IMG/VR virus record: IMGVR_UViG_2718218131_000011
Coordinates: 1 to 64,000 of that record
Source of the DNA: a virus
Taxonomy: Duplodnaviria; Heunggongvirae; Uroviricota; Caudoviricetes
Strand: one strand, 5' to 3'
DNA length: 64,000 bases
The notes beneath the pieces were generated by a model, which saw only the letters and a list, made by a program, of their open reading frames with translations, made no database searches and had not been told where the DNA came from. Below are positions 2,256-50,225 of this stretch, piece by piece (positions within the stretch are counted from its first letter, which is position 1; each line of letters opens with the position of its first letter). The translations under genes were made by a program, and so were the position numbers.

Positions 2256-5222
2256 ATGCCACGTCGTTCCATCCTGTCCGCCGCCGAGCGGGAAAGCCTG
2301 CTGGCGTTGCCGGACTCCAAGGACGACCTGATCCGACATTACACATTCAACGATACCGACCTCTCGATCATCCGACAGCGGCGCGGGCCAGCCAATCGGC
2401 TGGGCTTCGCGGTGCAGCTCTGTTACCTGCGCTTTCCCGGCGTCATCCTGGGCGTCGATGAACTACCGTTCCCGCCCTTGTTGAAGCTGGTCGCCGACCA
2501 GCTCAAGGTCGGCGTCGAAAGCTGGAACGAGTACGGCCAGCGGGAGCAGACCCGGCGCGAGCACCTGAGCGAGCTGCAAACCGTGTTCGGTTTCCGGCCC
2601 TTCACCATGAGCCATTACCGGCAGGCCGTCCAGATGCTGACCGAGCTGGCGATGCAAACCGACAAAGGCATCGTGCTGGCCAGCGCCTTGATCGGGCACC
2701 TGCGGCGGCAGTCGGTCATTCTGCCCGCCCTCAACGCCGTCGAGCGGGCGAGTGCCGAGGCGATCACCCGTGCTAACCGGCGCATCTACGACGCCTTGGC
2801 CGAACCACTGGCGGACGCGCATCGCCGCCGCCTCGACGATCTGCTCAAGCGCCGGGACAACGGCAAGACGACCTGGTTGGCTTGGTTGCGCCAGTCTCCG
2901 GCCAAGCCAAATTCGCGGCATATGCTGGAACACATCGAACGCCTCAAGGCATGGCAGGCACTCGATCTGCCTACCGGCATCGAGCGGCTGGTTCACCAGA
3001 ACCGCCTGCTCAAGATTGCCCGCGAGGGCGGCCAGATGACACCCGCCGACCTGGCCAAATTCGAGCCGCAACGGCGCTACGCCACTCTCGTGGCGCTGGC
3101 CACCGAGGGCATGGCCACCGTCACCGACGAAATCATCGACCTGCACGACCGCATCCTGGGTAAGCTGTTTAACGCTGCCAAGAATAAGCATCAGCAGCAG
3201 TTCCAGGCGTCAGGCAAGGCCATCAACGCCAAGGTACGTCTGTACGGGCGCATCGGTCAGGCGCTGATCGACGCCAAGCAATCAGGCCGCGATGCGTTTG
3301 CCGCCATCGAGGCCGTCATGTCCTGGGATTCCTTTGCCGAGAGCGTCACCGAGGCGCAGAAGCTCGCGCAACCCGATGACTTCGATTTCCTGCATCGCAT
3401 CGGCGAGAGCTACGCCACCCTGCGCCGCTATGCACCGGAATTCCTTGCCGTGCTCAAGCTGCGGGCCGCGCCCGCCGCCAAAAACGTGCTTGATGCCATT
3501 GAGGTGCTGCGCGGCATGAACACCGACAACGCCCGCAAGCTGCCAGCCGATGCACCGACCGGCTTCATCAAGCCGCGCTGGCAGAAACTGGTGATGACCG
3601 ACGCCGGCATCGACCGGCGCTACTACGAACTGTGCGCGCTGTCCGAGTTGAAGAACTCCCTGCGCTCGGGCGACATCTGGGTGCAGGGTTCACGCCAGTT
3701 CAAGGACTTCGAGGACTACCTGGTACCGCCCGAGAAGTTCACCAGCCTCAAGCAGTCCAGCGAATTGCCGCTGGCCGTGGCCACCGACTGCGAACAATAT
3801 CTGCATGAGCGGCTGACGCTGCTGGAAGCACAACTTGCCACCGTCAACCGCATGGCGGCAGCCAACGACCTGCCGGATGCCATCATCACCGAGTCGGGCT
3901 TGAAGATCACGCCGCTGGATGCGGCGGTGCCCGACACCGCGCAGGCGCTGATAGACCAGACAGCCATGGTCCTGCCGCACGTCAAGATCACCGAACTGCT
4001 GCTCGAAGTCGATGAGTGGACGGGCTTCACCCGGCACTTCACGCACTTGAAATCGGGCGATCTGGCCAAGGACAAGAACCTGTTGTTGACCACGATCCTG
4101 GCCGACGCGATCAACCTGGGCCTGACCAAGATGGCCGAGTCCTGCCCCGGCACGACCTACGCGAAGCTCGCTTGGCTGCAAGCCTGGCATACCCGCGACG
4201 AAACGTACTCGACAGCGTTGGCTGAACTGGTCAACGCTCAGTTTCGGCATCCCTTTGCCGGGCACTGGGGCGATGGCACCACATCATCATCGGACGGACA
4301 GAATTTCCGAACCGCTAGCAAGGCAAAGAGCACGGGGCACATCAACCCAAAATATGGCAGCAGCCCAGGACGGACTTTCTACACCCACATCTCCGACCAA
4401 TACGCGCCATTCCACACCAAGGTGGTCAATGTCGGCCTGCGCGACTCAACCTACGTGCTCGACGGCCTGCTGTACCACGAATCCGACCTGCGGATCGAGG
4501 AGCACTACACCGACACGGCGGGCTTCACCGATCACGTCTTCGCCCTGATGCACCTCTTGGGCTTCCGCTTCGCGCCGCGCATCCGCGACCTGGGCGACAC
4601 CAAGCTCTACATCCCGAAGGGCGATGCCGCCTATGACGCGCTCAAGCCGATGATCGGCGGCACGCTCAACATCAAGCACGTCCGCGCCCATTGGGACGAA
4701 ATCCTGCGGCTGGCCACCTCGATCAAGCAGGGCACGGTGACGGCCTCGCTGATGCTCAGGAAACTCGGCAGCTACCCGCGCCAGAACGGCTTGGCCGTCG
4801 CGCTGCGCGAGTTGGGCCGCATCGAGCGCACGCTGTTCATCCTCGACTGGCTGCAAAGCGTCGAGCTACGCCGCCGCGTGCATGCCGGGCTGAACAAGGG
4901 CGAGGCGCGCAATGCGCTGGCCCGTGCCGTGTTCTTCAACCGCCTTGGTGAAATCCGTGACCGCAGTTTCGAGCAGCAGCGCTACCGGGCCAGCGGCCTC
5001 AACCTGGTGACGGCGGCCATCGTGCTGTGGAACACGGTCTACCTGGAGCGTGCGGCGCATGCGTTGCGCGGCAATGGTCATGCCGTCGATGACTCGCTAT
5101 TGCAGTACCTGTCGCCACTCGGCTGGGAGCACATCAACCTGACCGGTGATTACCTATGGCGCAGCAGCGCCAAGATCGGCGCGGGGAAGTTCAGGCCGCT
5201 ACGGCCTCTGCAACCGGCTTAG
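2256..5222 (+). CDS. tnpA: Tn3/Tn21-family transposase TnpA
   Basis: 988-aa ORF directly downstream of tnpR in the same orientation, ending inside the terminal inverted repeat. Confidence 0.95.
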
Positions 5223-5511: not shown

Positions 5512-5528
5512 ATTGCTCTAATTGATCG
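5512..5528 (+). promoter_or_regulatory. C1 repressor operator-like site upstream of ref
   Basis: ATTGCTCTAATTGATCG matches the P1 C1 operator consensus ATTGCTCTAATAAATTT at about 13 of 17 positions. Confidence 0.45.
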
Positions 5529-5595
5529 CTATAATTGAGCCGCAGTTTTTGTCAACTACGAAGACGTTGCCATTACTTAACTCCTTGACATCATT

Positions 5596-5621
5596 GGCGG
5601 CCATCAGGCCGCCTTTTTTTT
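5596..5621 (+). terminator. Terminator-like hairpin plus T-tract in the ref leader
   Basis: GGCGGCC-ATCA-GGCCGCC stem-loop followed by eight T residues, ending 6 bp before the ref ATG. Confidence 0.4.
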
Positions 5622-5626
5622 GCCAT

Positions 5627-6187
5627 ATGAAAACAATCGAACAAAAAATTGAACAGCACCGTAAGTGGCAGAAGGCAGCCAGAGAACGAGCGATCGCTCG
5701 GCAACGGGAGAAGTTGGCTGATCCGGCCTGGCGAGAATCTCAATATCAGAAAATGCGGAATACTATCGACCGCCGTATCGCTAAACAGAAAGAGCGCCCA
5801 CCAGCCAGCAAAACGTGGAAAAGCGCGGTAAAAATAAAATCTCGTGGCTTGAAGGGACGAACACCGACGGCGGAGGAGCGGCGCATAGCCAATGCTCTTG
5901 GCGCTCTCCCCTGCATTGCCTGCTATATGCATGGAGTAATATCTGAAGAGGTGTCTCTGCACCATATCTCCGGTCGTACCGCGCCTGGTTGTCACAAAAA
6001 GCAATTGCCACTTTGTAGATGGCACCACCAGCATGCAGCACCGGCTGAAGTAAGAGAAAAATACCCCTGGCTGGTCCCTGTTCATGCCGATGGTGTGGTT
6101 GGAGGCAAGAAAGAATTCACCTTGCTGAACAAGTCAGAGATGGAGTTGCTGGCTGACGCCTATGAGATGGCAAACATAATGCACTAA
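5627..6187 (+). CDS. ref: Recombination enhancement function Ref (HNH endonuclease family)
   Basis: 186 aa starting MKTIEQKIEQHRKWQKAARERA; Cys/His-rich HNH-like core CYMHGV...LHHISGR...CRWHH; recognised as P1 Ref. Confidence 0.85.
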   Translation: MKTIEQKIEQHRKWQKAARERAIARQREKLADPAWRESQYQKMRNTIDRRIAKQKERPPASKTWKSAVKIKSRGLKGRTPTAEERRIANALGALPCIACYMHGVISEEVSLHHISGRTAPGCHKKQLPLCRWHHQHAAPAEVREKYPWLVPVHADGVVGGKKEFTLLNKSEMELLADAYEMANIMH

Positions 6188-6376
6188 TAAATATATTATT
6201 TTTAATCTGAAATAATTGACAACTGACAAGTGACTTCAGTCAGAATCATCACATGCCCGGTACGGATGGATCCCTTTTCAAATATTCCATGGACGGCACA
6301 GTCTGAGTACCGGGCGCTACCTTCAGTTGTATTGCTAAGCCGCCGCTGGTGGCTTTTCTTTTTTATAAGGGGCGCT

Positions 6377-7018
6377 ATGGATAAGAAAATATGCGTTGTT
6401 TCGATGAGCGTCGGCAAACCGGCGTCAATGACTGCCGCATGGATCAACAATGAGCTGATAATGGCTGAGCGGACCAGCTACCCTGAACGCCGCCGCGATA
6501 TGGAACTCCAGCTGCTGCGCGAATTGCGAGAAAAAGAGGAAAAGGGTTTTATCGTGCTGGTGGAAGAGGAAAACAGCTTTATTACGGGTCGAGTTGGCCA
6601 GCGTGTAAGGTTGCGCGATCCCTTCATGAACGGCAGGCCGGTACTAATTGAAGCAATGCAGATTTACAAGGAGCTGGAACGCCAGAAAGCGATCAAGTTA
6701 CCGCGCAAAGAATCCGGCAAATACATCCTCCACCAAAGCATCTTCGATTCCGAACACGACAAAAAAGGCGATGAATTTTTCAACATCAACTGGAGCGAAA
6801 TAACGACAGAGCACGTTCTGTCGTTGTTATGCTGCTTCGCAACGGAATATAACAACGTTGCAAGCGCCGACTACATCAGGGCAATGGCTGGAGAAGTTGA
6901 GGCTCGCCAGGAACCATCGTTACTAAGCCCTCTGATTAACATAATTCGCGGAACCCAATGTCTAGCCGACAAGCGAGTTCCTCAAGGCTTACTTACCGGC
7001 AAAGAAAACTATTTATAA
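6377..7018 (+). CDS. Hypothetical protein at the position of P1 mat
   Basis: 213-aa ORF from MDKKICVV; backbone-like base composition; no recognisable motifs. Confidence 0.4.
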   Translation: MDKKICVVSMSVGKPASMTAAWINNELIMAERTSYPERRRDMELQLLRELREKEEKGFIVLVEEENSFITGRVGQRVRLRDPFMNGRPVLIEAMQIYKELERQKAIKLPRKESGKYILHQSIFDSEHDKKGDEFFNINWSEITTEHVLSLLCCFATEYNNVASADYIRAMAGEVEARQEPSLLSPLINIIRGTQCLADKRVPQGLLTGKENYL

Positions 7019-7047
7019 TTAATTACGTCAGTAGCCAATAGAGATTT

Positions 7048-7080
7048 TTGTTGTGGAACAAAAATATATATTTTACAATC
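7048..7080 (+). promoter_or_regulatory. Putative sigma70 promoter of the two-gene cassette
   Basis: TTGTGG (-35), 17-bp spacer, TACAAT (-10) about 30 bp upstream of the cassette start; GGGGGA ribosome-binding site before the ATG. Confidence 0.3.
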
Positions 7081-7108
7081 TAGTAACTTTGGGTGGGGGA
7101 TTATTACA

Positions 7109-8149
7109 ATGATGAATATTAAGCCGCTGAAAATTAGGAACAAGGTCATGAAGCCTCATAAAGCATTATTAAACCCTGACCTAACCGCAAGGAATGTACT
7201 TACATACAGTCATTGGGATTTTGTCGAACTCTGGTTAAAGCGAAACGAAAAAGATGAGGCTCTTTTTTATTGGGAGCAAGCAAAAGTATTTAATCAGGCG
7301 GCCAATGGTTTACCCAACCAATCAGCCCCACTTTTGCACTATTATTCATTCATGAATGCAGTAAAGGCGTTACTTTCATCTCGCAATATAAACTTCAAAC
7401 AGCATCATGGTGTTGCTAGGGGTGAAAATGCAGCCCAAATTGATAACTTATCTGATATAAAAGTAAAAATAAAAAATGAGGGTATACTTCCGTCTTTTTC
7501 AAAATATATTGACGGCACCTCTCATGAGGGGGTGTACAATATAAAAAACCTTTTTTCTGGATTGCCATATATTCATCGTACATATTGCCTTACTTATGAT
7601 GTAACTGATGATATATTTATTCCACTGATCGATGCTGAGTTCGTTTTGAATGAGTCAGACAATAGCCTGTTTTTCACTGCGATTTTATCCAAGGATTTTC
7701 GGTTCGACACAGTTTTCGACATTCTACCGCCAGCGTTCGAATTGTTTGAAAGAGAAAAGTACAAAATAAAATCAGTAGAATCATTACTTGATTATAATGA
7801 AAATCAATCGTCCAACATGCCGCAATTAACTGAATTTCATAAAAAAATAAGAAGAAATCTTTACTATATCAATGGCGCAGAGACTCTTTGGTATCTCAAA
7901 CGTAAAAACAATCAATCTGAGCATACTTCTGTTTCAATATCGCCATTGGTTATAACCCTAGCAGCTATGCATCGATTAAGTGAGCTATGTCGGTATGACC
8001 CACTTAAGCTAAGACAGTTACTAAATGAAAAAGAAAACTGGATTATTGCTGAATTTATTCAACAATCTCCGTCACAGTTTATAGATGCAATTTCATCTGA
8101 AATTACTGGACACCAATTTCTTATCCCAAACGTAAGGTCTGCTTCTTAA
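7109..8149 (+). CDS. Hypothetical 346-aa protein, cassette component A
   Basis: Long ORF in strongly AT-rich DNA with a good RBS; predicted largely helical, no TM segment; no family recognised by eye (a weak R-x6-H element near residue 250 is the only HEPN-like hint). Confidence 0.7.
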   Translation: MMNIKPLKIRNKVMKPHKALLNPDLTARNVLTYSHWDFVELWLKRNEKDEALFYWEQAKVFNQAANGLPNQSAPLLHYYSFMNAVKALLSSRNINFKQHHGVARGENAAQIDNLSDIKVKIKNEGILPSFSKYIDGTSHEGVYNIKNLFSGLPYIHRTYCLTYDVTDDIFIPLIDAEFVLNESDNSLFFTAILSKDFRFDTVFDILPPAFELFEREKYKIKSVESLLDYNENQSSNMPQLTEFHKKIRRNLYYINGAETLWYLKRKNNQSEHTSVSISPLVITLAAMHRLSELCRYDPLKLRQLLNEKENWIIAEFIQQSPSQFIDAISSEITGHQFLIPNVRSAS

Positions 8150-8658
8150 TGAATATATATATCGCATGCGCTTTAACTCATGTTCCAAGGGAAATTTTCC
8201 ATGAGTACAGTAATTGGATTCACAGCCTTGCAAAAGGTCTATCTCAAAATAACAACGTAAAATATGCTTTGATAAATAGTGACCCAGAATTATCAAAGCG
8301 CCCTGAAAGTAACAAATCTAGACTTTGTTACATTTGGGACAGAGATATGGTTGAGAAATCTGATGTAATAATTGCAGAATGTAGTTTTCCATCAACAGGG
8401 CTAGGAATAGAGTTGCAGATTGCTGAACAGAAGAACATTCCTGTAATCATCTGTTATAAAGATTATGGGATAAATAAAACTAAAACCATTGAATACGTGA
8501 ATCCAGATGAGACTACCCATAATCTACAAGTTGGCGAGGGTTTCATTTCTCATATGGTATTAGGACTACCAAACATCCTTGATGTCATATTATGTAAAGA
8601 TATTGATAACACATGCAGGAAGCTAAAAATACTGTTAGATATGATTAACCATAATTAA
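8149..8658 (+). CDS. Nucleoside 2-deoxyribosyltransferase / DNPH1-like fold protein, cassette component B
   Basis: 169 aa; N-terminal MNIYIACAL strand and PSTGLGIELQIAEQKNIPVI motif resemble the NDT/DNPH1 signature (GLGMELGYA in Lactobacillus NDT, recalled from memory); start codon overlaps the stop of component A (TAATG). Confidence 0.65.
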   Translation: MNIYIACALTHVPREIFHEYSNWIHSLAKGLSQNNNVKYALINSDPELSKRPESNKSRLCYIWDRDMVEKSDVIIAECSFPSTGLGIELQIAEQKNIPVIICYKDYGINKTKTIEYVNPDETTHNLQVGEGFISHMVLGLPNILDVILCKDIDNTCRKLKILLDMINHN

Positions 8659-8688
8659 AAATTAACACCCACTTAAGATGTCTAAACC

Positions 8689-8708
8689 AGCCCGGTATTA
8701 ACCGGGCT
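8689..8708. terminator. Stem-loop between the convergent cassette and lxc-like gene
   Basis: AGCCCGGT-ATTA-ACCGGGCT 8-bp perfect stem; no clear T-tract. Confidence 0.35.
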
Positions 8709-8716
8709 AGACAAAC

Positions 8717-8965
8717 TTAATCAGCATTCAGGAGCAATGCATTATCTATGATGATTTGCTCCCATTCTTCGAATGCCCGGTCGCGGACGCCCTGGGGAAC
8801 GCTGTTAGTTTTGAAATCGACGACCGTACGCCATTTCCCGTCCGGACGGTACATGCGCAGAGCTTTACTTCCCCCCTCCCTGCGCACCTCAACGTTATGC
8901 TTATCAGCAAACTCTTGTAATGCTCGTAGCGTCCCATGCTTTACTGTGTAGTATCGCTTTTTCAA
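8717..8965 (-). CDS. Small protein at the P1 Lxc position
   Basis: 82-aa ORF last in the darB-containing leftward operon; name by position and size only. Confidence 0.45.
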   Translation of the reverse strand: MKKRYYTVKHGTLRALQEFADKHNVEVRREGGSKALRMYRPDGKWRTVVDFKTNSVPQGVRDRAFEEWEQIIIDNALLLNAD

Positions 8966-9402
8966 GTTTTCTCTCCAGCCTGTGCTAAGGCTTCAACTTC
9001 CAAATCGTAAGACTCAAACTCATAGTCCTGGTCGTCAACCTCTTCAGGCACTGGCAGTAAATGCCAGGCTGAGTATATCTGACCATTATCAAAACGCTCC
9101 TGGCTGTAGAGCGTCGCGGCTATGAGCGTCAGCGCCGGGCGGTCATAACGGTAAATTTTGCGAACGTCACGGTCAACGAGACGACCGAAATTACCATAAC
9201 CGCGCTCCAGTAATAATTTTTTAATTTCCGGCCAGTATGGACCATAGCTGCGGTACAGACGGGGATTTTTCAGTAATCGCCCGCGTAGCCCTGACAGGAA
9301 GAAATCAACGTATTCGTCTTCTGTCTTTCCTAACAACGCTGTACGGAGCACCGCCTCAAGATATGTTTTATTCGGTTTTATTGTATCAGATAGTGTGGCC
9401 AT
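8962..9402 (-). CDS. P1 Ulx-like protein
   Basis: 146-aa ORF between darB and the lxc-like gene on the same strand; name by position and size only. Confidence 0.45.
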   Translation of the reverse strand: MATLSDTIKPNKTYLEAVLRTALLGKTEDEYVDFFLSGLRGRLLKNPRLYRSYGPYWPEIKKLLLERGYGNFGRLVDRDVRKIYRYDRPALTLIAATLYSQERFDNGQIYSAWHLLPVPEEVDDQDYEFESYDLEVEALAQAGEKT

Positions 9403-9435: not shown

Positions 9436-12400
9436 TTATGCGTATTGTTGGATGACGGCCAGAACGTCCGCCACGTTGTGTTTTGTCTCGATAATCCACC
9501 AGTTACCCGGGAAATCGCTGTTCTTCGCCTTCGCTGGCAGCCAGCGAGCGCCGAATTTCGCCTTGATTGCGTCTTTCGCACGGAAAAGAATGCCTTTCAT
9601 GCCGGAGGCTTCCTGAAGCCCAAATACCTCGCCAGCGGCGAATTTTGGTGCGTACATCATCTTCAGGTCGGCGGTGGATACGCGATAATTCAGACCAAGA
9701 GACTGAGCTATGCTGGTGGCATCACCCTGTATTGATGATAACTCTTCTTGTTTCTCGTTTCTGGCGGCAATTTCTTCCTCCGTGATGTTGCCAAGGGCCA
9801 GGTTTATCCGATCAGCGTCTGCCTGTTTCTCTTCATCGGTGCGACCGGCAAGTGCCGTGTTAATTCTCTGCAATATCTCCACATGATTCTTGCGCATGCT
9901 GAGCAATTCCGGCGTAACCTCGTTAAGGTCCACCAGCCCAAGAATGGCAAGGTCAGAAAACATTGATACCAGGTTGTAGGTCATGCGATAGCTGAGTTGA
10001 CCATAGGCTGATGGCAACTTCACCGCATCCATTTGATAGGCATCCATAAATTTAGAGCCGTCGTTTACGACATCCGCAATTGCAGGTGTGATTTTCCCTG
10101 TGGTGGCGGCCTCCCTGATTGCTGTTACCCACGATTGAGTCAGCGCGGCGACTGCATGATTCAGATTGGCTTCCCGTTCTGCTGCAATGCGCGCACTTGC
10201 TGCGTCCATTGCCTGCTTGATCTCGTCTTTATTGCTGTAAATGCCAATGGTGCCAAACTGTGCTGTGGTGATCTCATAATCTGACGCCCGGAACTCATTG
10301 GTACCGAAAATGGCATTGGTGACTTCAAGTTCAGAATCCCCGTTACGAGTAGCCCCCTGGCTTGTTTTTTCCGGCATTCTGGCGATCGCATCCGCTATTT
10401 TCTCCTGAATTGCTTCAGGGGATAGCGTATCTCCGTATGACGCGATTACATCGCCATAATTGGAGCCAAACAATTCAACCAGGAATGTTTCTGCCGAACG
10501 GATCTGGCGGTTATTCCCTTCCGACATCATACCAAGCACCCATTTTGCAATTGACGACTTCAGCGCGCCGTCACGGCGATCCGGGTAAATCGCATGCTTC
10601 AGTGGGTCCGTATAGGTACCAACAAAATCAATGCTATAGCCTGACTCTGTAGTCTGAACGCCGTATGAGTCAGTGATTTTGATCATGCCGCGCTGCTGGA
10701 AACGGTAGAAATCGTCACAGGAAATGATGTCGTTAATCCCGGCGATGGAGACGCCACCACTGATTTTCTGCATAACAGCATCTTCATCGGGAGTTACATC
10801 AACCTGTTTATCCAGCGTCTTCACATCCCAGTTACCCGATTTGGTGCCTTTGAAGGTAAAGATGATCTCCACGTCTGCGCGCTGGCTGTCGAAGTCCAGC
10901 GACTTAATGCGAAAGATATCACCGGCACAATCGTAGTATTGGCCTACACGCCATGAGCGATCGCCGATAACAAGGAACTCATTCGCATGGTTAACCAGAT
11001 CAGGATCAACATCCAGAATGCCTTTATTTATTGCATCCTCCACCAGCGGGCGCAGGCGTTTGATATCCGTCGCGGCCTTCTGAGTACGGTTCAATAATTT
11101 CTCATAGCGGGAGATGGCCTGAGAGATATTAGCCTTGCGCTGAATGGCGCTTTTCAACGACGCGCGATACTGTGCTAACAACATACGGTCTGTGTGATGG
11201 ACACTCCCCCAGCGGGCCTTCCAGTCTGCGTTATCCGCTGCCTTGGCCATTGCCGCCTGTTTGAATTTAGCTACCTCGGCGGTGGTCTTTTCAAGTTCCG
11301 CTTTGCTTCGCTCTAATTCAGCGGTAAGTACCTCCACATCCTCGCCAGCTGCGTGCTGCGCCTTGATGTAGTTCTGAAGGTCGATAGTAGCCTGTTCTTT
11401 CTGGCGAGCGCGTTTCGCAGCTTTCGCCTTATCCATTTGAACCTGCATCATTGCCAGACGTTCGCCGTCATCCTTCGCGGTATACATCTGCATTTCGATC
11501 ATGTCATTGGCGTCGGCGTTCTCCATTTCTGACTTATCTGAACGGAGGATATCGGAGATCCAGCCTGCTTTACGCTTCAGCGTCTTCAGTCGGTATTCAT
11601 CGAAAGACCCCTTGCCGCAGTAGTAGTGAACGCGAACGCTTGCACGGTTGGAACCAACTCGGGCACCGCGACCGTTACGCTGTGCGATACTGGCTGGTGT
11701 CCACGGCAACGTCAGGTGGTGGATATCCGTCGTTCCTCGATGCAGGTTGATACCCACCTCTGCCTTTTTGTTGCAGATGATGATCGGAGTCCGGCCCTCC
11801 TGGAAGTCGGCTGCAATCTTTTCCAGACCGCCCAACGACATTTCATTTTGCTGCGCGATATAGGCGTCATACAGAGCCATTTGCTCGTTGTATTTCGCTA
11901 TCTGTGCATCTGTTGGTTCATCCGGTAGCTCTTTCGGCGGTTTAACCGCTTTCAGTTTCTTACCGGTTTTACCTGCCTCGGCAACCGTCTGAGCATTCAG
12001 GATCCCCACCTTTGAAGGTTCAAGGTTTAGAGCATTGCAGATAATGCGCTTGAGCTTCTGGTGCTGCGTTTTTTCATCGGTGAAGATGATTTGCTTACCT
12101 TCCGGGAAAAACTCCTTCAGCGTGGCGATCAGCTTCGCGTATTTCGGCGTAACGGGGTGAGTTACGGTCTGTTCGTCAATGCCAAACCTGGCCAGGCGCT
12201 TATTCACTTCCTGCTCGAACGCTTCCGGAACCTGCAACTGAATAAACTCGCCCTTATCTATCAGGGAGTATTGCGATTGCTGCGTGATTGAATCATCACT
12301 GTCGTCGTCTTCGCTGGTGGCTTGTTTAGGCAAACTGTCCGCCAGCTGCTGCACCGCATCGGCGTACTCCGGCAGGAAACGATAGGTGATCCGGCGATAG

Positions 12401-15400
12401 TACAGGTCCATGTCAGTACATACGCGGTCCATATCCCTGATTATTGAGAAGATCGGACGGGCTTTCTCGTGCTCAATCACGCCGTCTTCATTGACCGAGG
12501 TCGTTACGCCATTGTTGGCTTTTGCCGCCGCTTCCGCCTGCTGACGCAATTCTTCATACGCCGCCAGTTGTTCTTCAGTAAGTGGTGCATCCTGCTGGTG
12601 TTCGTCCAGCTCCGGGATCTCCACGGTATCCTTAACGTCTTCCGCCGTTTTAAGCGTTACCCAGCGATGGAATATACCGCGCAGCGCATCAAGGTTTTCA
12701 AAGCCCACCAGCGCCATTTTTTCTTCAACTTCACCGCTGATTTTCTGTACCGTTTCCAGCCTGGTCTTGCCGAAGAATTTAACGAAGTCATCAGGACCGT
12801 AGATCCCCATGTTCTGCCAGTATTCCTTCGGCAGAACATGAGAAAGCATGTTGTATGCATCGATCGGGGTGTTAACGACTGGCGTTGCAGTCAGGAGAAC
12901 CGGCCCGCGCCCGCCATTCTTTTTCATCAGGTACGCGTTTTTAATTGCCATATCTCGCGCCGATTGCGCCACCGCGCTGGTGGGCAGATAGGCCAGTTGT
13001 GACGCTTCGCGACCATTTTTATAGCTATTGCGGTAGTTGTGACCTTCGTCAGCGATCACACTATCGAAGCCCATATCCTCAAAGTACGGATACTTCTCTG
13101 CTTTTTCGGTGCCGGTATCTGAATACTCCGACAATACCCGGCGACGCGCAGCCTCTTTGCGGTGGGAGTCGGAGTCCATTGCGCTGGCTACGCGCCCGGC
13201 GGCAACGAAGTCATAAAGCATATCCTGTGCATGCTCATCTACGGTGTCATCACGTAGCGGAATGCGGGCGTATTGTTCTTTGGTAAACACGACTGCACGG
13301 TAATTTGAGTGCGGGATCGCGTTCATCCGCGCCGTGATAGTGGCTTCATCTGCCAGCTTAAGAGCATCGCGCATAACTGGAGTGCCATCAGTACCAAGAA
13401 CAGGTTTACCGTTCTCATCGAGCACCGGCACCTGGCGAATCTGATCGCCATCCATCAGCACATCAAGACCGACGAACAGGTAGTTACTGAATGCCTCTTC
13501 ACTCAGGAACTCTTTTGCTTCGTAATACCAGTTTTCCAGCACTGCTTTAGGCACTACATAAGCAGTACGGGTGGAGCGACCGTTCTCATAGTTGAACGCC
13601 TCAAGCGCCAGCGCGGTCGTCGTTTTACCCAGCCCGGTGCCGAAGCCCAGGATGCCGCGCCCATCTTCGGACAGTCGGCGCACCTCGCTATTCTGGTAAT
13701 CAAATGGCTGGCGCTTACCGCTTAATCCCTTCAACCCAAGCGGATCGCCAGAGTGTTCATACGGGATATTGCTATTGAACACATCGTTGTATTTGGCAAC
13801 CAACTCATCGTAGCGATCGTGCGTCTTGATCCACTTATTGAACTGGTCCTCAAGCAGTGCCATCTGCTCGCGGTAGCCGTTCGCCGTCGCGCTATCTTTA
13901 CCACCGATACGCGCACCATTGAGATACTTTTCCAGCTGTGCCGGGAACCCGGTCGCGTTTTCACCTGATTTACGGTCCCACTCATAGCGGATCTCGCCTG
14001 TTTCTTTATCCTTGCGCTGGACGACACCGTATCGGTGCCCGACGAACAGACCATCACCACCGTGATAGGTGTCAGAAACCATTTCGTCGCCTTCCAGCTG
14101 CACTGACTGCACATAGCGCAGATCCGGATAGCCGTTTTCCTGCAAAAACTCCAGAATGACGGAGCGGTCGAACCAACGGCTATTGAGCTTAAAGCGGATA
14201 TTCTCTGCTGGCGTCTTGATGCGCTTCTCTTCGATCGCTGCCAGCTGATTAAGGACGTTGTTCTTTACTGGACCATCGGGGAGCGTGGCGAGAAATTCCT
14301 GTTTTGGAGCTACTATCTCGTTAATGTCGCCGCTGGTGGCGCGGGCGAACGGAACAATCCCGCCATACGGCGAAACCGCAATACCAGGGGTGCTGGCCAA
14401 TAAATTAAGCAACTCTTCATCACTGGCTGGCAGTTCGCCGGTAAACGCAAGGCGGAAATCATCGAGCTGGATTGGATCGCGGGTAAGATCGCTATAGAGA
14501 TAACGCAAGGTGTCCTGATAGCTGGTGGAGTCATAACTTGCGCTGGAATCATGCGTAACCAGATTTCCTGTCAGCTCGTCAGAAATAGTGCCATCCAGCT
14601 TAATTGCACCACGGAAAGCAAACCAAGCGCGCGCACCGCTTCCCGATAATTTAGCTATCGGACCGCGACCGGGGTTACCAAAACGGTCAATCTCTGCCTG
14701 CAAACGGGATACCAGAGAAAGGCGCTGCTGTTCGATTTGTTCAGCACTATGCCCGGCGGCCTTCATATCCTGATATTCAATTAACATCCGGCCAATCATC
14801 GCCCCGCGATACAAGCGTTCACGGTATTTTTCAGGCTGGCTGTTAATCCAGTCCACCAGTTGCACCATATCGTCGCTGATTGATGTGGTGTACTTATCGC
14901 GGACATTTGCCATCTGGGTAAATGTCATGCCGAGACGACCTTCTGTGGTAGTCAGGTTACGCTGAAGAGCCTCCCAGCTATCCGCGCCATAACTGGCAAC
15001 ATCAATCTTCAGCTCCTTCCCGGCATCAGCTTCAATCCAGCGACCACCAGCATATTTTTGCCATACGCCATTAATCAGGCGCATTTCCCCTTCATCAACA
15101 ACATCTGCGGTCGGTGACGGTTCAGCCATATCGAGCAAAGACCAGTCGATACGACTTTCGAAACGATGAATCAGCTTCGCTTTAAGAGCCTGGTTATCAA
15201 TCTGCCCGTCGGCACGAACCTCAATACGCCCCTGGAATCCCTTCTCCTGAGTGCCATGAACAAACCGGCGGCCGTCCTTTTCAAACCACTTGCCAGAAAT
15301 AAACGTTGGCCAAAGCACATTTGCCGATTCAAGAGTGCCTTCATCCACCAGGGGGATTTTCTCAGCCATCTCTGCCGGATGTTTACGCATCAGCACCACA

Positions 15401-16203
15401 TCAACGACCGTACTGGTCCCGTTTGCGTCAAAAGTACCGGTAGGCAAGCGGTGAGCGCCAAGAAATTCAGCTTTACGGGATAGGCGCAGGCGTAACCGCT
15501 TCATGTTTGAACCTGAAACAATGGACGGCGGCACAATCACGCACATGAATCCGCCAGGCTTTATCTTGTCCAACATGCGGAGCATGAAGTAAGACCCCAT
15601 GTCCGTTTCTTCTGCGTAAGGTTTATCGATGTTGCGTGTGTTATCACGACCACCGAACGGAACGTTACCCACCACATGGTCGAATGAATCGTTAGGCGTG
15701 CTTACAGCCAGTTGTTCGAACGGGGAAATCTGTACGCTGTCTTCCGGATGTAACAGCTGGTTTATACGACCGGAAACACTGCTGATCTCAGTCGCGGTCA
15801 TCACCGTGCCAACCGGTTTTGTCTCATTAAAAACGCCGGTGCCCGCCGATGGTTCCAGAGTGTTACCTACGTCCGCGCCGTAGAGCTTCATGATCTCCCA
15901 GACACCTTCAGCTATCGGCTTTGGTGTGTAATATTCGGAGACGGACCCGCCAATGCCGCCTTCACCGGTGTACCCAGCCAGGATCTGGCGCTGTTCATCT
16001 GTCAGTGTCGCGCCGTCCACCAGCGAATTAAGCAAATCTATCGCCTTCTGATTCGCCTCACGGCGCAGTCGGTCATAGCTTTTGCCTTCCACCTTTTCCA
16101 CGCCGTATTTAATCGGCGCTCGGTGAGATGTTATTGCCCTAATGTATTTCAATATTTCGCTGACACTTGAACAGCGAAACACCCCCATAGATAGCTTATT
16201 CAT
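9436..16203 (-). CDS. darB: DarB antirestriction protein (methyltransferase plus helicase domains)
   Basis: 2255-aa ORF, the size I recall for P1 DarB; NVPFGG methyltransferase-like motif and DEGH helicase motif (VIADEGHNYRNS) visible. Confidence 0.85.
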   Translation of the reverse strand: MNKLSMGVFRCSSVSEILKYIRAITSHRAPIKYGVEKVEGKSYDRLRREANQKAIDLLNSLVDGATLTDEQRQILAGYTGEGGIGGSVSEYYTPKPIAEGVWEIMKLYGADVGNTLEPSAGTGVFNETKPVGTVMTATEISSVSGRINQLLHPEDSVQISPFEQLAVSTPNDSFDHVVGNVPFGGRDNTRNIDKPYAEETDMGSYFMLRMLDKIKPGGFMCVIVPPSIVSGSNMKRLRLRLSRKAEFLGAHRLPTGTFDANGTSTVVDVVLMRKHPAEMAEKIPLVDEGTLESANVLWPTFISGKWFEKDGRRFVHGTQEKGFQGRIEVRADGQIDNQALKAKLIHRFESRIDWSLLDMAEPSPTADVVDEGEMRLINGVWQKYAGGRWIEADAGKELKIDVASYGADSWEALQRNLTTTEGRLGMTFTQMANVRDKYTTSISDDMVQLVDWINSQPEKYRERLYRGAMIGRMLIEYQDMKAAGHSAEQIEQQRLSLVSRLQAEIDRFGNPGRGPIAKLSGSGARAWFAFRGAIKLDGTISDELTGNLVTHDSSASYDSTSYQDTLRYLYSDLTRDPIQLDDFRLAFTGELPASDEELLNLLASTPGIAVSPYGGIVPFARATSGDINEIVAPKQEFLATLPDGPVKNNVLNQLAAIEEKRIKTPAENIRFKLNSRWFDRSVILEFLQENGYPDLRYVQSVQLEGDEMVSDTYHGGDGLFVGHRYGVVQRKDKETGEIRYEWDRKSGENATGFPAQLEKYLNGARIGGKDSATANGYREQMALLEDQFNKWIKTHDRYDELVAKYNDVFNSNIPYEHSGDPLGLKGLSGKRQPFDYQNSEVRRLSEDGRGILGFGTGLGKTTTALALEAFNYENGRSTRTAYVVPKAVLENWYYEAKEFLSEEAFSNYLFVGLDVLMDGDQIRQVPVLDENGKPVLGTDGTPVMRDALKLADEATITARMNAIPHSNYRAVVFTKEQYARIPLRDDTVDEHAQDMLYDFVAAGRVASAMDSDSHRKEAARRRVLSEYSDTGTEKAEKYPYFEDMGFDSVIADEGHNYRNSYKNGREASQLAYLPTSAVAQSARDMAIKNAYLMKKNGGRGPVLLTATPVVNTPIDAYNMLSHVLPKEYWQNMGIYGPDDFVKFFGKTRLETVQKISGEVEEKMALVGFENLDALRGIFHRWVTLKTAEDVKDTVEIPELDEHQQDAPLTEEQLAAYEELRQQAEAAAKANNGVTTSVNEDGVIEHEKARPIFSIIRDMDRVCTDMDLYYRRITYRFLPEYADAVQQLADSLPKQATSEDDDSDDSITQQSQYSLIDKGEFIQLQVPEAFEQEVNKRLARFGIDEQTVTHPVTPKYAKLIATLKEFFPEGKQIIFTDEKTQHQKLKRIICNALNLEPSKVGILNAQTVAEAGKTGKKLKAVKPPKELPDEPTDAQIAKYNEQMALYDAYIAQQNEMSLGGLEKIAADFQEGRTPIIICNKKAEVGINLHRGTTDIHHLTLPWTPASIAQRNGRGARVGSNRASVRVHYYCGKGSFDEYRLKTLKRKAGWISDILRSDKSEMENADANDMIEMQMYTAKDDGERLAMMQVQMDKAKAAKRARQKEQATIDLQNYIKAQHAAGEDVEVLTAELERSKAELEKTTAEVAKFKQAAMAKAADNADWKARWGSVHHTDRMLLAQYRASLKSAIQRKANISQAISRYEKLLNRTQKAATDIKRLRPLVEDAINKGILDVDPDLVNHANEFLVIGDRSWRVGQYYDCAGDIFRIKSLDFDSQRADVEIIFTFKGTKSGNWDVKTLDKQVDVTPDEDAVMQKISGGVSIAGINDIISCDDFYRFQQRGMIKITDSYGVQTTESGYSIDFVGTYTDPLKHAIYPDRRDGALKSSIAKWVLGMMSEGNNRQIRSAETFLVELFGSNYGDVIASYGDTLSPEAIQEKIADAIARMPEKTSQGATRNGDSELEVTNAIFGTNEFRASDYEITTAQFGTIGIYSNKDEIKQAMDAASARIAAEREANLNHAVAALTQSWVTAIREAATTGKITPAIADVVNDGSKFMDAYQMDAVKLPSAYGQLSYRMTYNLVSMFSDLAILGLVDLNEVTPELLSMRKNHVEILQRINTALAGRTDEEKQADADRINLALGNITEEEIAARNEKQEELSSIQGDATSIAQSLGLNYRVSTADLKMMYAPKFAAGEVFGLQEASGMKGILFRAKDAIKAKFGARWLPAKAKNSDFPGNWWIIETKHNVADVLAVIQQYA

Positions 16204-29632: not shown

Positions 29633-30430
29633 GTGCGCCCAGCATGGGCGCGATCTTGGAGGTGAAAGCCCTCCCGCGAGCTGACCACAGCGAGCGAAAT
29701 GAAGTGCAACTGCGTGAGGGCGACCGGGCGTGGGGAGGAAGCACGGAATGAACCCGTGAGCCGATGAACGAGAATCGGATATGAGGCGCGATGGAGCAAG
29801 GCGAGCAGGCACATCACTGCGAAGCTTTCGTGGTCAAGTCGAAGTCGCGCAGATCCGACGGTTGTGCGGGGAAGGATCGCGTTCTTACCTGGGGAGTTCT
29901 CGCCTCATGCCTGAAAGGGCAACGTCGTAAGACGGAGCGAGAAGTCAGCAGAGGCCGTAGTAGTCAGGACTCCGACGAAGGGCCGAACGAGAAGGAAAGC
30001 CAGAAGATATGACTCTTGACAGGACATTGCGTCAGAAGCCGGGGAAGCCCGGTACGGACCCGCATGCCGGGTGGTGTGGCAGGGGCGCAGCCCTTGTGCT
30101 CCCCCCTATGCCGATCAAGCAGAACATTGTGCTGGGCCTCTGACGCAGCTCCTTGATGGTCTTGGCATCGTGCTTAAGTGGATTGGTGTCGTCCCTGATA
30201 GGATCATGGAGGCAGAATGAAACTCAAAAATCCGGGATAGCACGCAAAACAGGCTGCACAAAAAGCGCAGGTTGCGTAGGAGTGAAATCCCGCTCCCAAA
30301 AAATGGTGCAGAAGTTGCGGCAGTGGTCATCCGACGCACTGGAAAATAACAAACCCGCCGTGACCAGAATCGGAGGCCTGAGGGAGTGACCGAAAAACCG
30401 GACAACCCAGGCAGCAAATACCCGCTGGAT
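29633..30430 (+). mobile_element. 5' fragment of a group II intron, no intact reverse transcriptase
   Basis: Begins GTGCGCCCAG (GUGYG boundary); purine-rich, GC-rich, no long ORF; motifs AGCACGG, CGATGA, AATCGGATATGAGG and CGTAGTAGTC resemble domain I-III strings of bacterial introns such as Ll.LtrB (recalled); short ORF at 30153-30389 may be a degenerate maturase start. Confidence 0.5.
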
Positions 30431-46195: not shown

Positions 46196-46379
46196 GTATT
46201 TTTAAGTCGCGAATGCTATCTTTTCGCATCATATTGACCTTTTAATCGTTCAGGCTTATAGTTCCGCCGTCGTAGCAAATTCTGCGACCGGGTTTAGCAG
46301 CCTGAATACTTACGCGGACAACCGCAGATTTCCGATATTGCGGTATTTTTGTGTCCGTAAACCACGTTACGCCCGAATT

Positions 46380-46460
46380 ATGGTGGGGCGTGATGGGGAG
46401 GCTTCGGCCTGCTGGTTTCGTAAGTGCCAGTCTGCTAACCCCGTCACGTCCTGCCACCTG
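46380..46460 (+). ncRNA. Putative c4-like antisense immunity RNA
   Basis: Structured GC-rich segment (GGTGG...CCACC) between the operator and icd at the position of P1 c4; boundaries approximate. Confidence 0.3.
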
Positions 46461-46507
46461 TTTAGCAGCGGGTCGCAGGTTGTTTATCAACTTACGAGGC
46501 CGTAACT

Positions 46508-49895: not shown

Positions 49896-50018
49896 TACAA
49901 TCGTTGCGGGTGCTTGAGGCTATCTGCTTCAGGCATTACCCGAAAAGCAGATAGAAGAAAGCCCCAGATAACATTACGCGTCCTGCAAGACGCTTAACAT
50001 TAATCTGAGGCCATATCT

Positions 50019-50225
50019 ATGCTTAGCATACGTAGATTAGCCTCTTACCGACCAAAAGGTCAAGGAGAAGCAGGCTATGAAGCAGCAAAAAGCGATGTTA
50101 ATCGCTCTGATCGTCATCTGTTTAACCGTCATTGTGACGGCACTGGTAACGAGGAAAGACCTCTGCGAGGTACGAATCCGAACCAGCCAGACGGAGGTCA
50201 CTGTCTTCACAGCCTACGAATCTGA
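50019..50225 (+). CDS. mok-like reading frame overlapping hok
   Basis: 68-aa ORF overlapping the hok CDS in a different frame, as in hok/mok/sok loci. Confidence 0.35.
   Translation: MLSIRRLASYRPKGQGEAGYEAAKSDVNRSDRHLFNRHCDGTGNEERPLRGTNPNQPDGGHCLHSLRI

Follow-up and report, generated by a model that had tools for sequence, protein, structure and literature searches.

An NDT/DNPH1-fold protein with a YaaC-family partner in the mat-lxc slot of a P1-like phage-plasmid: a candidate nucleotide-targeting defence cassette

Introduction

What is a small protein that resembles nucleoside 2-deoxyribosyltransferases (NDTs) doing between the mat and lxc genes of a P1-like phage-plasmid, and why is its gene locked to that of a second protein? 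The question is raised by a stretch of 64,000 nucleotides (positions 1 to 64,000 of IMG/VR record IMGVR_UViG_2718218131_000011, hereafter the window), which is a P1-like phage-plasmid. Its mat-lxc slot holds two genes, one for a YaaC-family protein (7109..8149, + strand) and, directly downstream, one for a 169-aa candidate N-glycosidase of the NDT/DNPH1 fold (8149..8658, + strand). The answer that we prefer, with a probability of roughly 0.45, is that the 169-aa protein supplies the catalysis in an anti-phage module of two genes, of the abortive-infection or toxin-antitoxin-like type, carried as cargo by P1-like elements. The pair is a promising candidate for a new defence system that targets nucleotides; its enzymatic activity, substrate, toxic partner, trigger and phage protection are points that we infer. 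If protective, the cassette would be a compact system of ~1.6 kb outside the current defence catalogues, with chemistry that can be tested. It would then place an NDT/DNPH1-type glycosidase in immunity outside the retrons for the first time, and give the uncharacterised YaaC family (PF14175) its first functional context.

A Small Enzyme of the NDT/DNPH1 Superfamily

The reading frame of the 169-aa protein opens with an ATG and closes with a TAA at 8656-8658. The original prediction had likened its N-terminal strand IYIACAL (residues 3-9) and the motif PSTGLGIELQIA (residues 81-92) to enzymes acting on N-glycosidic bonds, and this likeness is borne out at the level of profile, profile-profile and structure comparison. 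Taken as a single sequence, the protein matches PF05014 (Nuc_deoxyrib_tr) with E = 1.8e-4 and 22.1 bits, residues 4-106 covering model positions 2-100, and the same family is matched at E < 0.01 by all 34 aligned relatives (best E = 2.2e-8). A family profile run against the PDB recovers DNPH1/Rcl chains at E = 8.6e-5, with PSTGLGIEL aligned to PSLGVGYEL. Comparison of the family with human DNPH1 by hhalign gave a probability of 94% (E = 9.6e-8) and paired D64, S82 and E88 with D80, S98 and E104; where aligned, the human sequence used matches that of the PDB chain.

The AlphaFold (AF2) model is a single domain of high predicted quality (predicted local distance difference test, pLDDT, 95.8; predicted template modelling score, pTM, 0.89). 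It superposes on NDT and DNPH1 structures, the comparison that had been proposed as a check of the fold, and a Foldseek search of the PDB yields 74 matches at E ≤ 1e-3, the best with E = 1.2e-5 and probability 1.00. Template modelling (TM) scores reach 0.61 when normalised by the query and 0.75 when normalised by the target. Ranked highest are DNPH1, the NDT-like protein 7m5h of Enterococcus faecalis, BcmB (a CMP N-glycosidase) and genuine NDTs. Assigning the fold is not new in itself: UniRef labels this very protein “Nucleoside 2-deoxyribosyltransferase”, and NCBI lists it as hypothetical.

The active site is predicted to consist of Y4, D64, S82 and E88. E88, the Glu of GLGIEL, had been singled out beforehand as a candidate catalytic residue, a proposal strengthened by its alignment with E104 of DNPH1 and its invariance in 54 of 54 family sequences. 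D64 and S82 are equally invariant, as is Y4 in the 53 sequences that cover it. Two residues of DNPH1, D80 and Y24, were mutated by its crystallographers, according to the titles of PDB entries. The equivalence of Y4 to the N-terminal Tyr of NDTs rests on the Pfam alignment, hhalign having left the N-terminal region unaligned. Mean column identity across 34 aligned relatives is 56%, with Y4, D64, G84, G86 and E88 among the invariant positions. Further invariant motifs are THVP (10-13), SDP (44-46), CYxWD (60-64) and LQxGxG (126-131), the last lying in a family-specific insert of ~30 residues (105-135) that is absent from DNPH1.

Among characterized enzymes, the best match by both profile and structure is DNPH1/Rcl, a 2'-deoxynucleoside 5'-phosphate N-hydrolase and 5-hydroxymethyl-dUMP N-hydrolase, which is likewise a small single-domain enzyme and shares the D...PS.G.G.E block residue for residue. 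Structural alignments with DNPH1 nevertheless show an identity of only 14-18%, and the window protein differs in having an obligate partner gene and in residing in mobile defence islands. NDTs of PF05014, such as that of L. leichmannii, share the fold, the N-terminal Tyr strand and the positions of the Asp and of the Glu nucleophile, but their Asp that binds the 5'-OH is replaced by Ser in the window protein, for which a transferase activity would be hypothetical. S98 of DNPH1 is a phosphate-binding Ser that stands in place of this 5'-OH-binding Asp. Since S82 corresponds to the Ser of DNPH1 and not to the Asp of NDTs, a 5'-phosphorylated substrate is suggested. The CMP and hydroxymethyl-CMP N-glycosidases BcmB, BlsM and MilB also hydrolyse nucleoside 5'-monophosphates. 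They belong to antibiotic biosynthesis clusters, and BcmB (4jen) matches in fold (E = 4.6e-5; TM 0.72, target-normalised); no match to the window protein was found for them at the sequence level.

An NDT-like catalytic domain has one described use against phages, in the effectors of type II retrons (Retron-Eco1/Ec86 and Sen2). The Ec86 effector, with catalytic E106, is released by phage infection and depletes adenine nucleotides and nicotinamide adenine dinucleotide (NAD+). As in the window protein, its site is lined by Glu (E106), Asp and Ser, and its partners hold it inactive until infection. The retron effector is, however, bilobed (14 helices and 7 strands), with a second, nucleic-acid-binding lobe following the NDT-like N-lobe, in contrast to the single 169-aa domain in the window. 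Identity as a retron was considered and rejected: near the cassette there is no reverse transcriptase, no Rfam match and no PADLOC retron match, and the genes around that of the enzyme are those for YaaC, mat and lxc. By its fold and active-site residues, the protein is a member of the NDT/DNPH1 superfamily that lies outside both DNPH1 proper and the retron effector family.

A Coupled YaaC Partner and Its Replacement

The upstream gene encodes a 346-aa protein of the YaaC family (PF14175, E = 1.5e-45), whose stop overlaps the start of the enzyme gene by 1 nt (TAATG, 8147-8151). Its model (pLDDT 91.6) contains the four-helix core of the HEPN fold, with helices at ~35-91 and ~279-333 split by an α/β insert of ~170 residues. 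No significant match to the YaaC model or sequence was found by Foldseek or among PDB sequences. The canonical Rx4-6H ribonuclease (RNase) motif is absent: the relevant helix reads H288-R289-LSELC-R295-Y296, and neither Arg is followed by a His at a distance of 4-6 residues. The polar residues that never vary are N83, K86, H100, H156, R157, H288, S291, R295 and Y296, and mean column identity across 30 sequences is 58%. A HEPN core is common to YaaC and to abortive-infection and toxin-antitoxin proteins such as HEPN-MNT, AbiD/F and HepS; YaaC differs from these in its missing Rx4-6H motif, its large insert and its partner, an NDT-like enzyme rather than an MNT nucleotidyltransferase. Predicted conflict proteins (AbiJ-NTD1-NDT fusions) that join an NDT to an N-terminal domain common to HEPN Abi proteins have been noted before (PMC3710099).

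The pairing of the enzyme with a partner gene is obligate. In a scan of one genome per species, hidden Markov models of both families place YaaC directly upstream on the same strand in 47 of the 50 assessable genomes, that is, 52 loci less two cut by contig ends; the 47 include two with a frameshifted YaaC and one in which an insertion separates the genes. These copies, which look degraded, are L009 (743-1659) and L019 (6941-7975), where frameshifts split YaaC, and L052 (109-2351), where 1.4 kb are inserted between the two genes. A truncated enzyme gene is seen on an E. coli metagenome contig (L075, 7251-7562).

In the other three genomes (L014, 7009-8004; L027, 6946-8004; L057, 7046-7996) the upstream gene, again with overlapping start and stop, encodes a different protein of ~320-350 aa, here called DCD-TM. 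It has a dCTP-deaminase-like domain (PF22769, E ~1e-26) and predicted C-terminal membrane helices, which were read from hydrophobic stretches and give weak matches to membrane-protein Pfam families. Further DCD-TM genes lie at L066 (5001-6002), L068 (5001-6026) and L069 (5001-5972). A Vibrio cholerae locus rich in small DUF645 cassette genes, a cassette array that is probably the superintegron, also has a DCD-TM and enzyme pair. A neighbour-joining tree places the L014 enzyme amid those partnered by YaaC (68% identity to the L008 enzyme) and the other DCD-partnered enzymes at the base, which indicates that partners were exchanged more than once. A docking module common to YaaC and DCD-TM was sought and rejected, hhalign finding no detectable similarity (probability 0.1%). 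DCD-TM, with at least 245 homologues, is also found without the enzyme, either alone amid transposases or in a type I restriction-modification (R-M) operon; since it has no PADLOC match, it may itself be a defence gene not yet described. That the enzyme can pair with a dCTP-deaminase-like protein suggests that immunity could act through deoxynucleotides by a new route.

Which of the two proteins would then be the toxic one? The original prediction had cast the NDT-like protein as the likely effector of the cassette, and this role is plausible because it alone of the partners has a recognisable intact catalytic site, the HEPN protein YaaC being without Rx4-6H. The alternative is that the partner kills and the NDT-like enzyme acts upstream in a regulatory role, by analogy with Thoeris, in which a TIR enzyme, related to NDT in fold, makes a signal that is read by swappable effectors. 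The NDT-like enzyme might use glycosyl transfer or base exchange to produce a signal derived from nucleotides, or it might clear such a signal. Growth arrest would then be executed by YaaC, through its HEPN fold and an inserted putative ligand-binding domain, or by DCD-TM, through its nucleotide-binding dUTPase fold and membrane helices. Such a division of labour would account for one conserved enzyme being found with two unrelated types of partner, an arrangement of constant enzyme and swappable partners that follows the logic of Thoeris, CBASS and Pycsar. Both partners resemble a binding domain joined to a toxic one (a HEPN fold in one, a DCD domain with predicted membrane helices in the other); DCD-TM alone in a type I R-M operon could be a self-sufficient defence protein, and the order of partner first and small enzyme second is that of thsA-thsB. 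The same independence of DCD-TM argues against a need for a signal made by the enzyme, however, and YaaC lacks the RNase motif. No SAVED, CARF, SLOG or Macro domain was detected in either partner, and known signal generators that sense infection, ThsB for one, are far less conserved than this enzyme. On this evidence we regard a killing partner as possible but somewhat doubtful.

A more specific form of this idea is that a new signalling-type family of Thoeris analogues is built around the NDT-fold enzyme, its unvarying component, which takes the place of the TIR enzyme. Infection would cause a (deoxy)ribosyl-derived molecule to be made, or its clearing to stop, and YaaC and the membrane-anchored dUTPase-fold protein would read that molecule. 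The cassette does resemble Thoeris in setting a small flavodoxin-like enzyme of N-glycosidase type beside interchangeable partners, one type of which is membrane-anchored. In Thoeris, by contrast, the enzyme is the TIR protein ThsB and the swappable partner is ThsA, whereas the cassette has no TIR, SIR2, SLOG or Macro domain and its enzyme is conserved, not diversified. We consider this family-wide reading unlikely.

Distribution in Bacteria and Mobile Elements

A word-indexed search gave 238 homologues of the enzyme at E ≤ 0.001, and the best 120 of these are all ~163-191 aa long, several with PF05014. The family is small: a search of 1.84 billion representative sequences with its profile yields just 34 clusters at E ≤ 1e-30, rising to 615 at E ≤ 1e-3. 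Second-tier relatives of 250-565 aa (P0412-P0435, e.g., P0416 and P0418) keep THVP, the Asp and PSTGxGxE in an N-terminal NDT-like domain. Their long, charged, coiled-coil-like tails carry no Pfam or PADLOC annotation beyond PF05014 and give no clue to function.

The 52 loci of the one-genome-per-species scan are spread over at least 10 phyla, with representatives among the Bacteroidota, Alpha-, Beta- and Gammaproteobacteria, Planctomycetota, Cyanobacteria, Myxococcota, Acidobacteriota, Spirochaetota, Nitrospirota, Armatimonadota, Campylobacterota and Desulfobacterota. Complete E. coli genomes carry the cassette at ~2% (109 of 5,426), and 109 of the 112 places where it occurs in them are plasmids. 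In PLSDB it is present in 85 plasmids, mostly non-mobilisable ones of Escherichia and Salmonella. Viral contigs rarely have it, IMG/VR containing only five loci in 2.9 million contigs; three of these are P1-like copies, and YaaC is kept in all five.

These figures bear on the idea that the enzyme serves the phage, as a counter-defence factor that destroys a host immune signal or an NAD-derived messenger. Its gene does adjoin the anti-restriction genes ulx and darB, and N-glycosidases could in principle cleave signals derived from ADP-ribose. The family is, however, overwhelmingly one of bacterial chromosomes and nearly absent from viral contigs, it matches no PHROG family, and a partner gene is always needed. 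The 52 bacterial species genomes set against five loci in 2.9 million viral contigs, the obligate pairing, the defence neighbours and the P1 slot together favour defence in a choice that the original prediction had left open, and counter-defence has a very slim chance of being correct.

A Variable Cargo Slot and Its Neighbourhoods

P1-like phages have a cargo slot of variable content at their mat-lxc junction, as is seen when the window (6230-9402) is compared with L059, L060, L070, L071 and L072. P1 itself has the EcoP1I res and mod genes at this position. SJ46 has a gene for a 373-aa RelA/SpoT protein that matches PADLOC PDC-S33 and is presumably CapRelSJ46, the protein described as encoded by phage SJ46 (PMC9712102). 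The slot of JL22 encodes a 315-aa protein with a partial PDC-S34 match, that of Ro157c2YLVW a 198-aa hypothetical protein and a helix-turn-helix protein, and that of RCS47 is empty. Both the EcoP1I genes and the CapRel-type gene share the slot with the cassette, yet their proteins and mechanisms are unrelated to those of the cassette and the likeness is purely positional. If the cassette is protective, it marks the junction as a defence hotspot that merits mining in P1-like phage-plasmids.

Elsewhere, known defence genes recur beside the cassette. Gabija-like AAA_15 and UvrD genes, PycTM, SoFic and AbiD are found among its neighbours, and PADLOC matched type I R-M, PDC-M19, PDC-M45 and MADS among the 126 nearest neighbour open reading frames (ORFs), which were called by a crude longest-ORF heuristic; these matches are per-family counts. 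A chromosomal copy in E. coli lies near BrxR, JetD and a Dpd cluster. The cassette thus recurs by known defence genes and in mobile-element hotspots, as judged from individual loci and these counts.

Could the pair instead be a plain addiction module of the toxin-antitoxin type, or serve nucleotide salvage, lending stability to plasmids and integron cassettes and playing no part in phage defence? It is carried on plasmid prophages and in the V. cholerae cassette-array locus, HicAB adjoins it in Nitrospina, and its two genes are translationally coupled, all of which would suit such a module. Against this, its neighbours are repeatedly bona fide defence systems and not random genes, the P1 slot otherwise houses defence genes, and sporadic occurrence, horizontal movement and a foreign guanine-cytosine (GC) content would be unusual for a housekeeping enzyme of salvage. 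We rate addiction or salvage as improbable.

The two-gene architecture of YaaC or DCD-TM with the enzyme appears to be undescribed. No published account of a YaaC and NDT-like pair was found in the literature searched, which included that on the P1-like hotspot and on CapRel and SJ46. PADLOC-DB 2.0.0 (PADLOC 2023) has no match for the enzyme or YaaC at E ≤ 1, and neither protein is matched in NCBIfam or PHROGs.

A Proposed Mechanism

How might such a pair act against phages? In the two-gene anti-phage module that we favour, E88 would attack C1' of a (deoxy)ribose, D64 would hold the 3'-OH, and Y4 and S82 would position the sugar and the 5'-phosphate. These predicted roles make cleavage of the base from a 5'-phosphorylated nucleotide, whether a deoxynucleoside monophosphate (dNMP), a nucleoside monophosphate or a substrate of NAD type, the most likely reaction. 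The nucleotide pool needed for phage replication would thereby be drained or poisoned. A precedent is the retron Ec86 effector, whose equivalent Glu is E106. YaaC, being translationally coupled, could either keep the enzyme inactive or license it when infection perturbs the cell. That DCD-TM takes the place of YaaC in a minority of loci points to deoxynucleotides as the chemistry involved, and the high conservation of both proteins across phyla suggests that the cue would lie in a metabolite or host process that is itself conserved, and not in a phage protein that evolves quickly.

The same chemistry could also serve a non-suicidal, metabolic form of immunity. Here a hydrolase like DNPH1 or MilB would be selective for nucleotides found only in phages (5-hydroxymethyl-dCMP or -dUMP, or other modified dNMPs), or would remove dUMP made by the DCD partner, so that phages with modified DNA are starved and the host is spared. 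The nearest solved relatives, which include entries on 5-hydroxymethyl-dUMP hydrolysis by DNPH1 and the CMP N-glycosidase BcmB, fit this picture, as do the phosphate-type S82 and a partner of the dCTP-deaminase family; stable carriage in 109 of 5,426 complete E. coli genomes is as expected of a non-toxic enzyme. What a selective hydrolase leaves unexplained is the need for YaaC. The tight, translationally coupled pair also looks like a toxin-antitoxin or abortive-infection module. The chance that the enzyme spares its host in this way seems small to us.

Several observations weigh against an enzyme that is the toxic half of a defence module. Neither protein is in PADLOC 2023, so the defence role rests on context. 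At 22.1 bits the window protein falls below the Pfam gathering score of 28.8 for PF05014, and its N-terminal loop ACALTHVPR is unlike the GSIRGG phosphate loop of DNPH1, so that the substrate cannot be read off. The retron NDT-like effectors are absent both from the PDB profile matches and from the top 50 Foldseek matches. In both proteins the mean column identity across phyla is unusually high (56-58%), which sensors of phage proteins do not typically show. A partner that can be either YaaC or DCD-TM also fits the partner as toxic effector, since signalling systems that use the partner as effector likewise combine a constant small enzyme with swappable partners; DCD-TM, with its predicted membrane helices, moreover occurs without the enzyme.

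Boundaries of the Cassette and Other Features of the Window

The genes at this end of the window follow the order ref, mat, YaaC gene, NDT-like gene, lxc, ulx, darB. To the left of the slot lie ref (5522-6187, with a PF16786 match) and the maturation control gene mat (6230..7018, + strand), which forms the left flank of the hotspot, is 94-98% identical to mat of P1, P7, RCS47 and SJ46, and probably has its true start inside the listed ORF. The right flank is formed by lxc (8717-8965, - strand) and, beside it, ulx (8962-9402, - strand). The 2255-aa gene product of darB (9436..16203, - strand) is a marker of the P1 backbone.

The cargo itself extends from 7019 to ~8685, as judged by GC content, which is ~35% within it and ~49-51% in the flanks, and by alignment with the empty site of RCS47. 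That alignment puts the left junction directly after the mat stop codon (7016-7018) and the right junction at ~8685, just ahead of a hairpin on the lxc side. This GC-rich hairpin (AGCCCGGT-atta-ACCGGGCT, 8689..8708) lies between the convergent NDT-like and lxc genes, has an equivalent in the empty site of RCS47, and is probably a backbone terminator on the lxc side; it was missed by the terminator scan because it has no T run.

A leader of the cassette (7019..7108, + strand) can be read directly from the DNA. It contains a weak -35 element, TTGTGG, 17 nt ahead of a -10-like TACAAT (7074-7079), followed by a Shine-Dalgarno-like GGGTGGGGG at 7091-7099. A palindrome with perfect 9-bp arms (ATTTTTGTT-GTGG-AACAAAAAT, 7044-7065) overlaps the putative -35 and could be an operator. 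The leader promoter is offered as a suggestion only, because a consensus promoter scan flagged no + strand site in the leader.

P1-like phage-plasmids also spread antibiotic-resistance genes, and the window holds a Tn21-like transposon with intI1. The intI1 class 1 integron integrase gene (1-1014), Tn21-type tnpR (1693-2253) and tnpA (2256-5222) adjoin the P1 ref gene. Since they abut ref, the phage-plasmid probably carries a resistance transposon whose remainder lies outside the window. Rfam matches elsewhere in the window comprise group II intron domains D1-D4 at 29714-29983 (RF02001, 96.9 bits; RF01998, 46.8 bits), and the P1 C4 antisense RNA with its a1/b1 target together with the sok antitoxin RNA of hok/sok (46256-46461 and 49908-50082).

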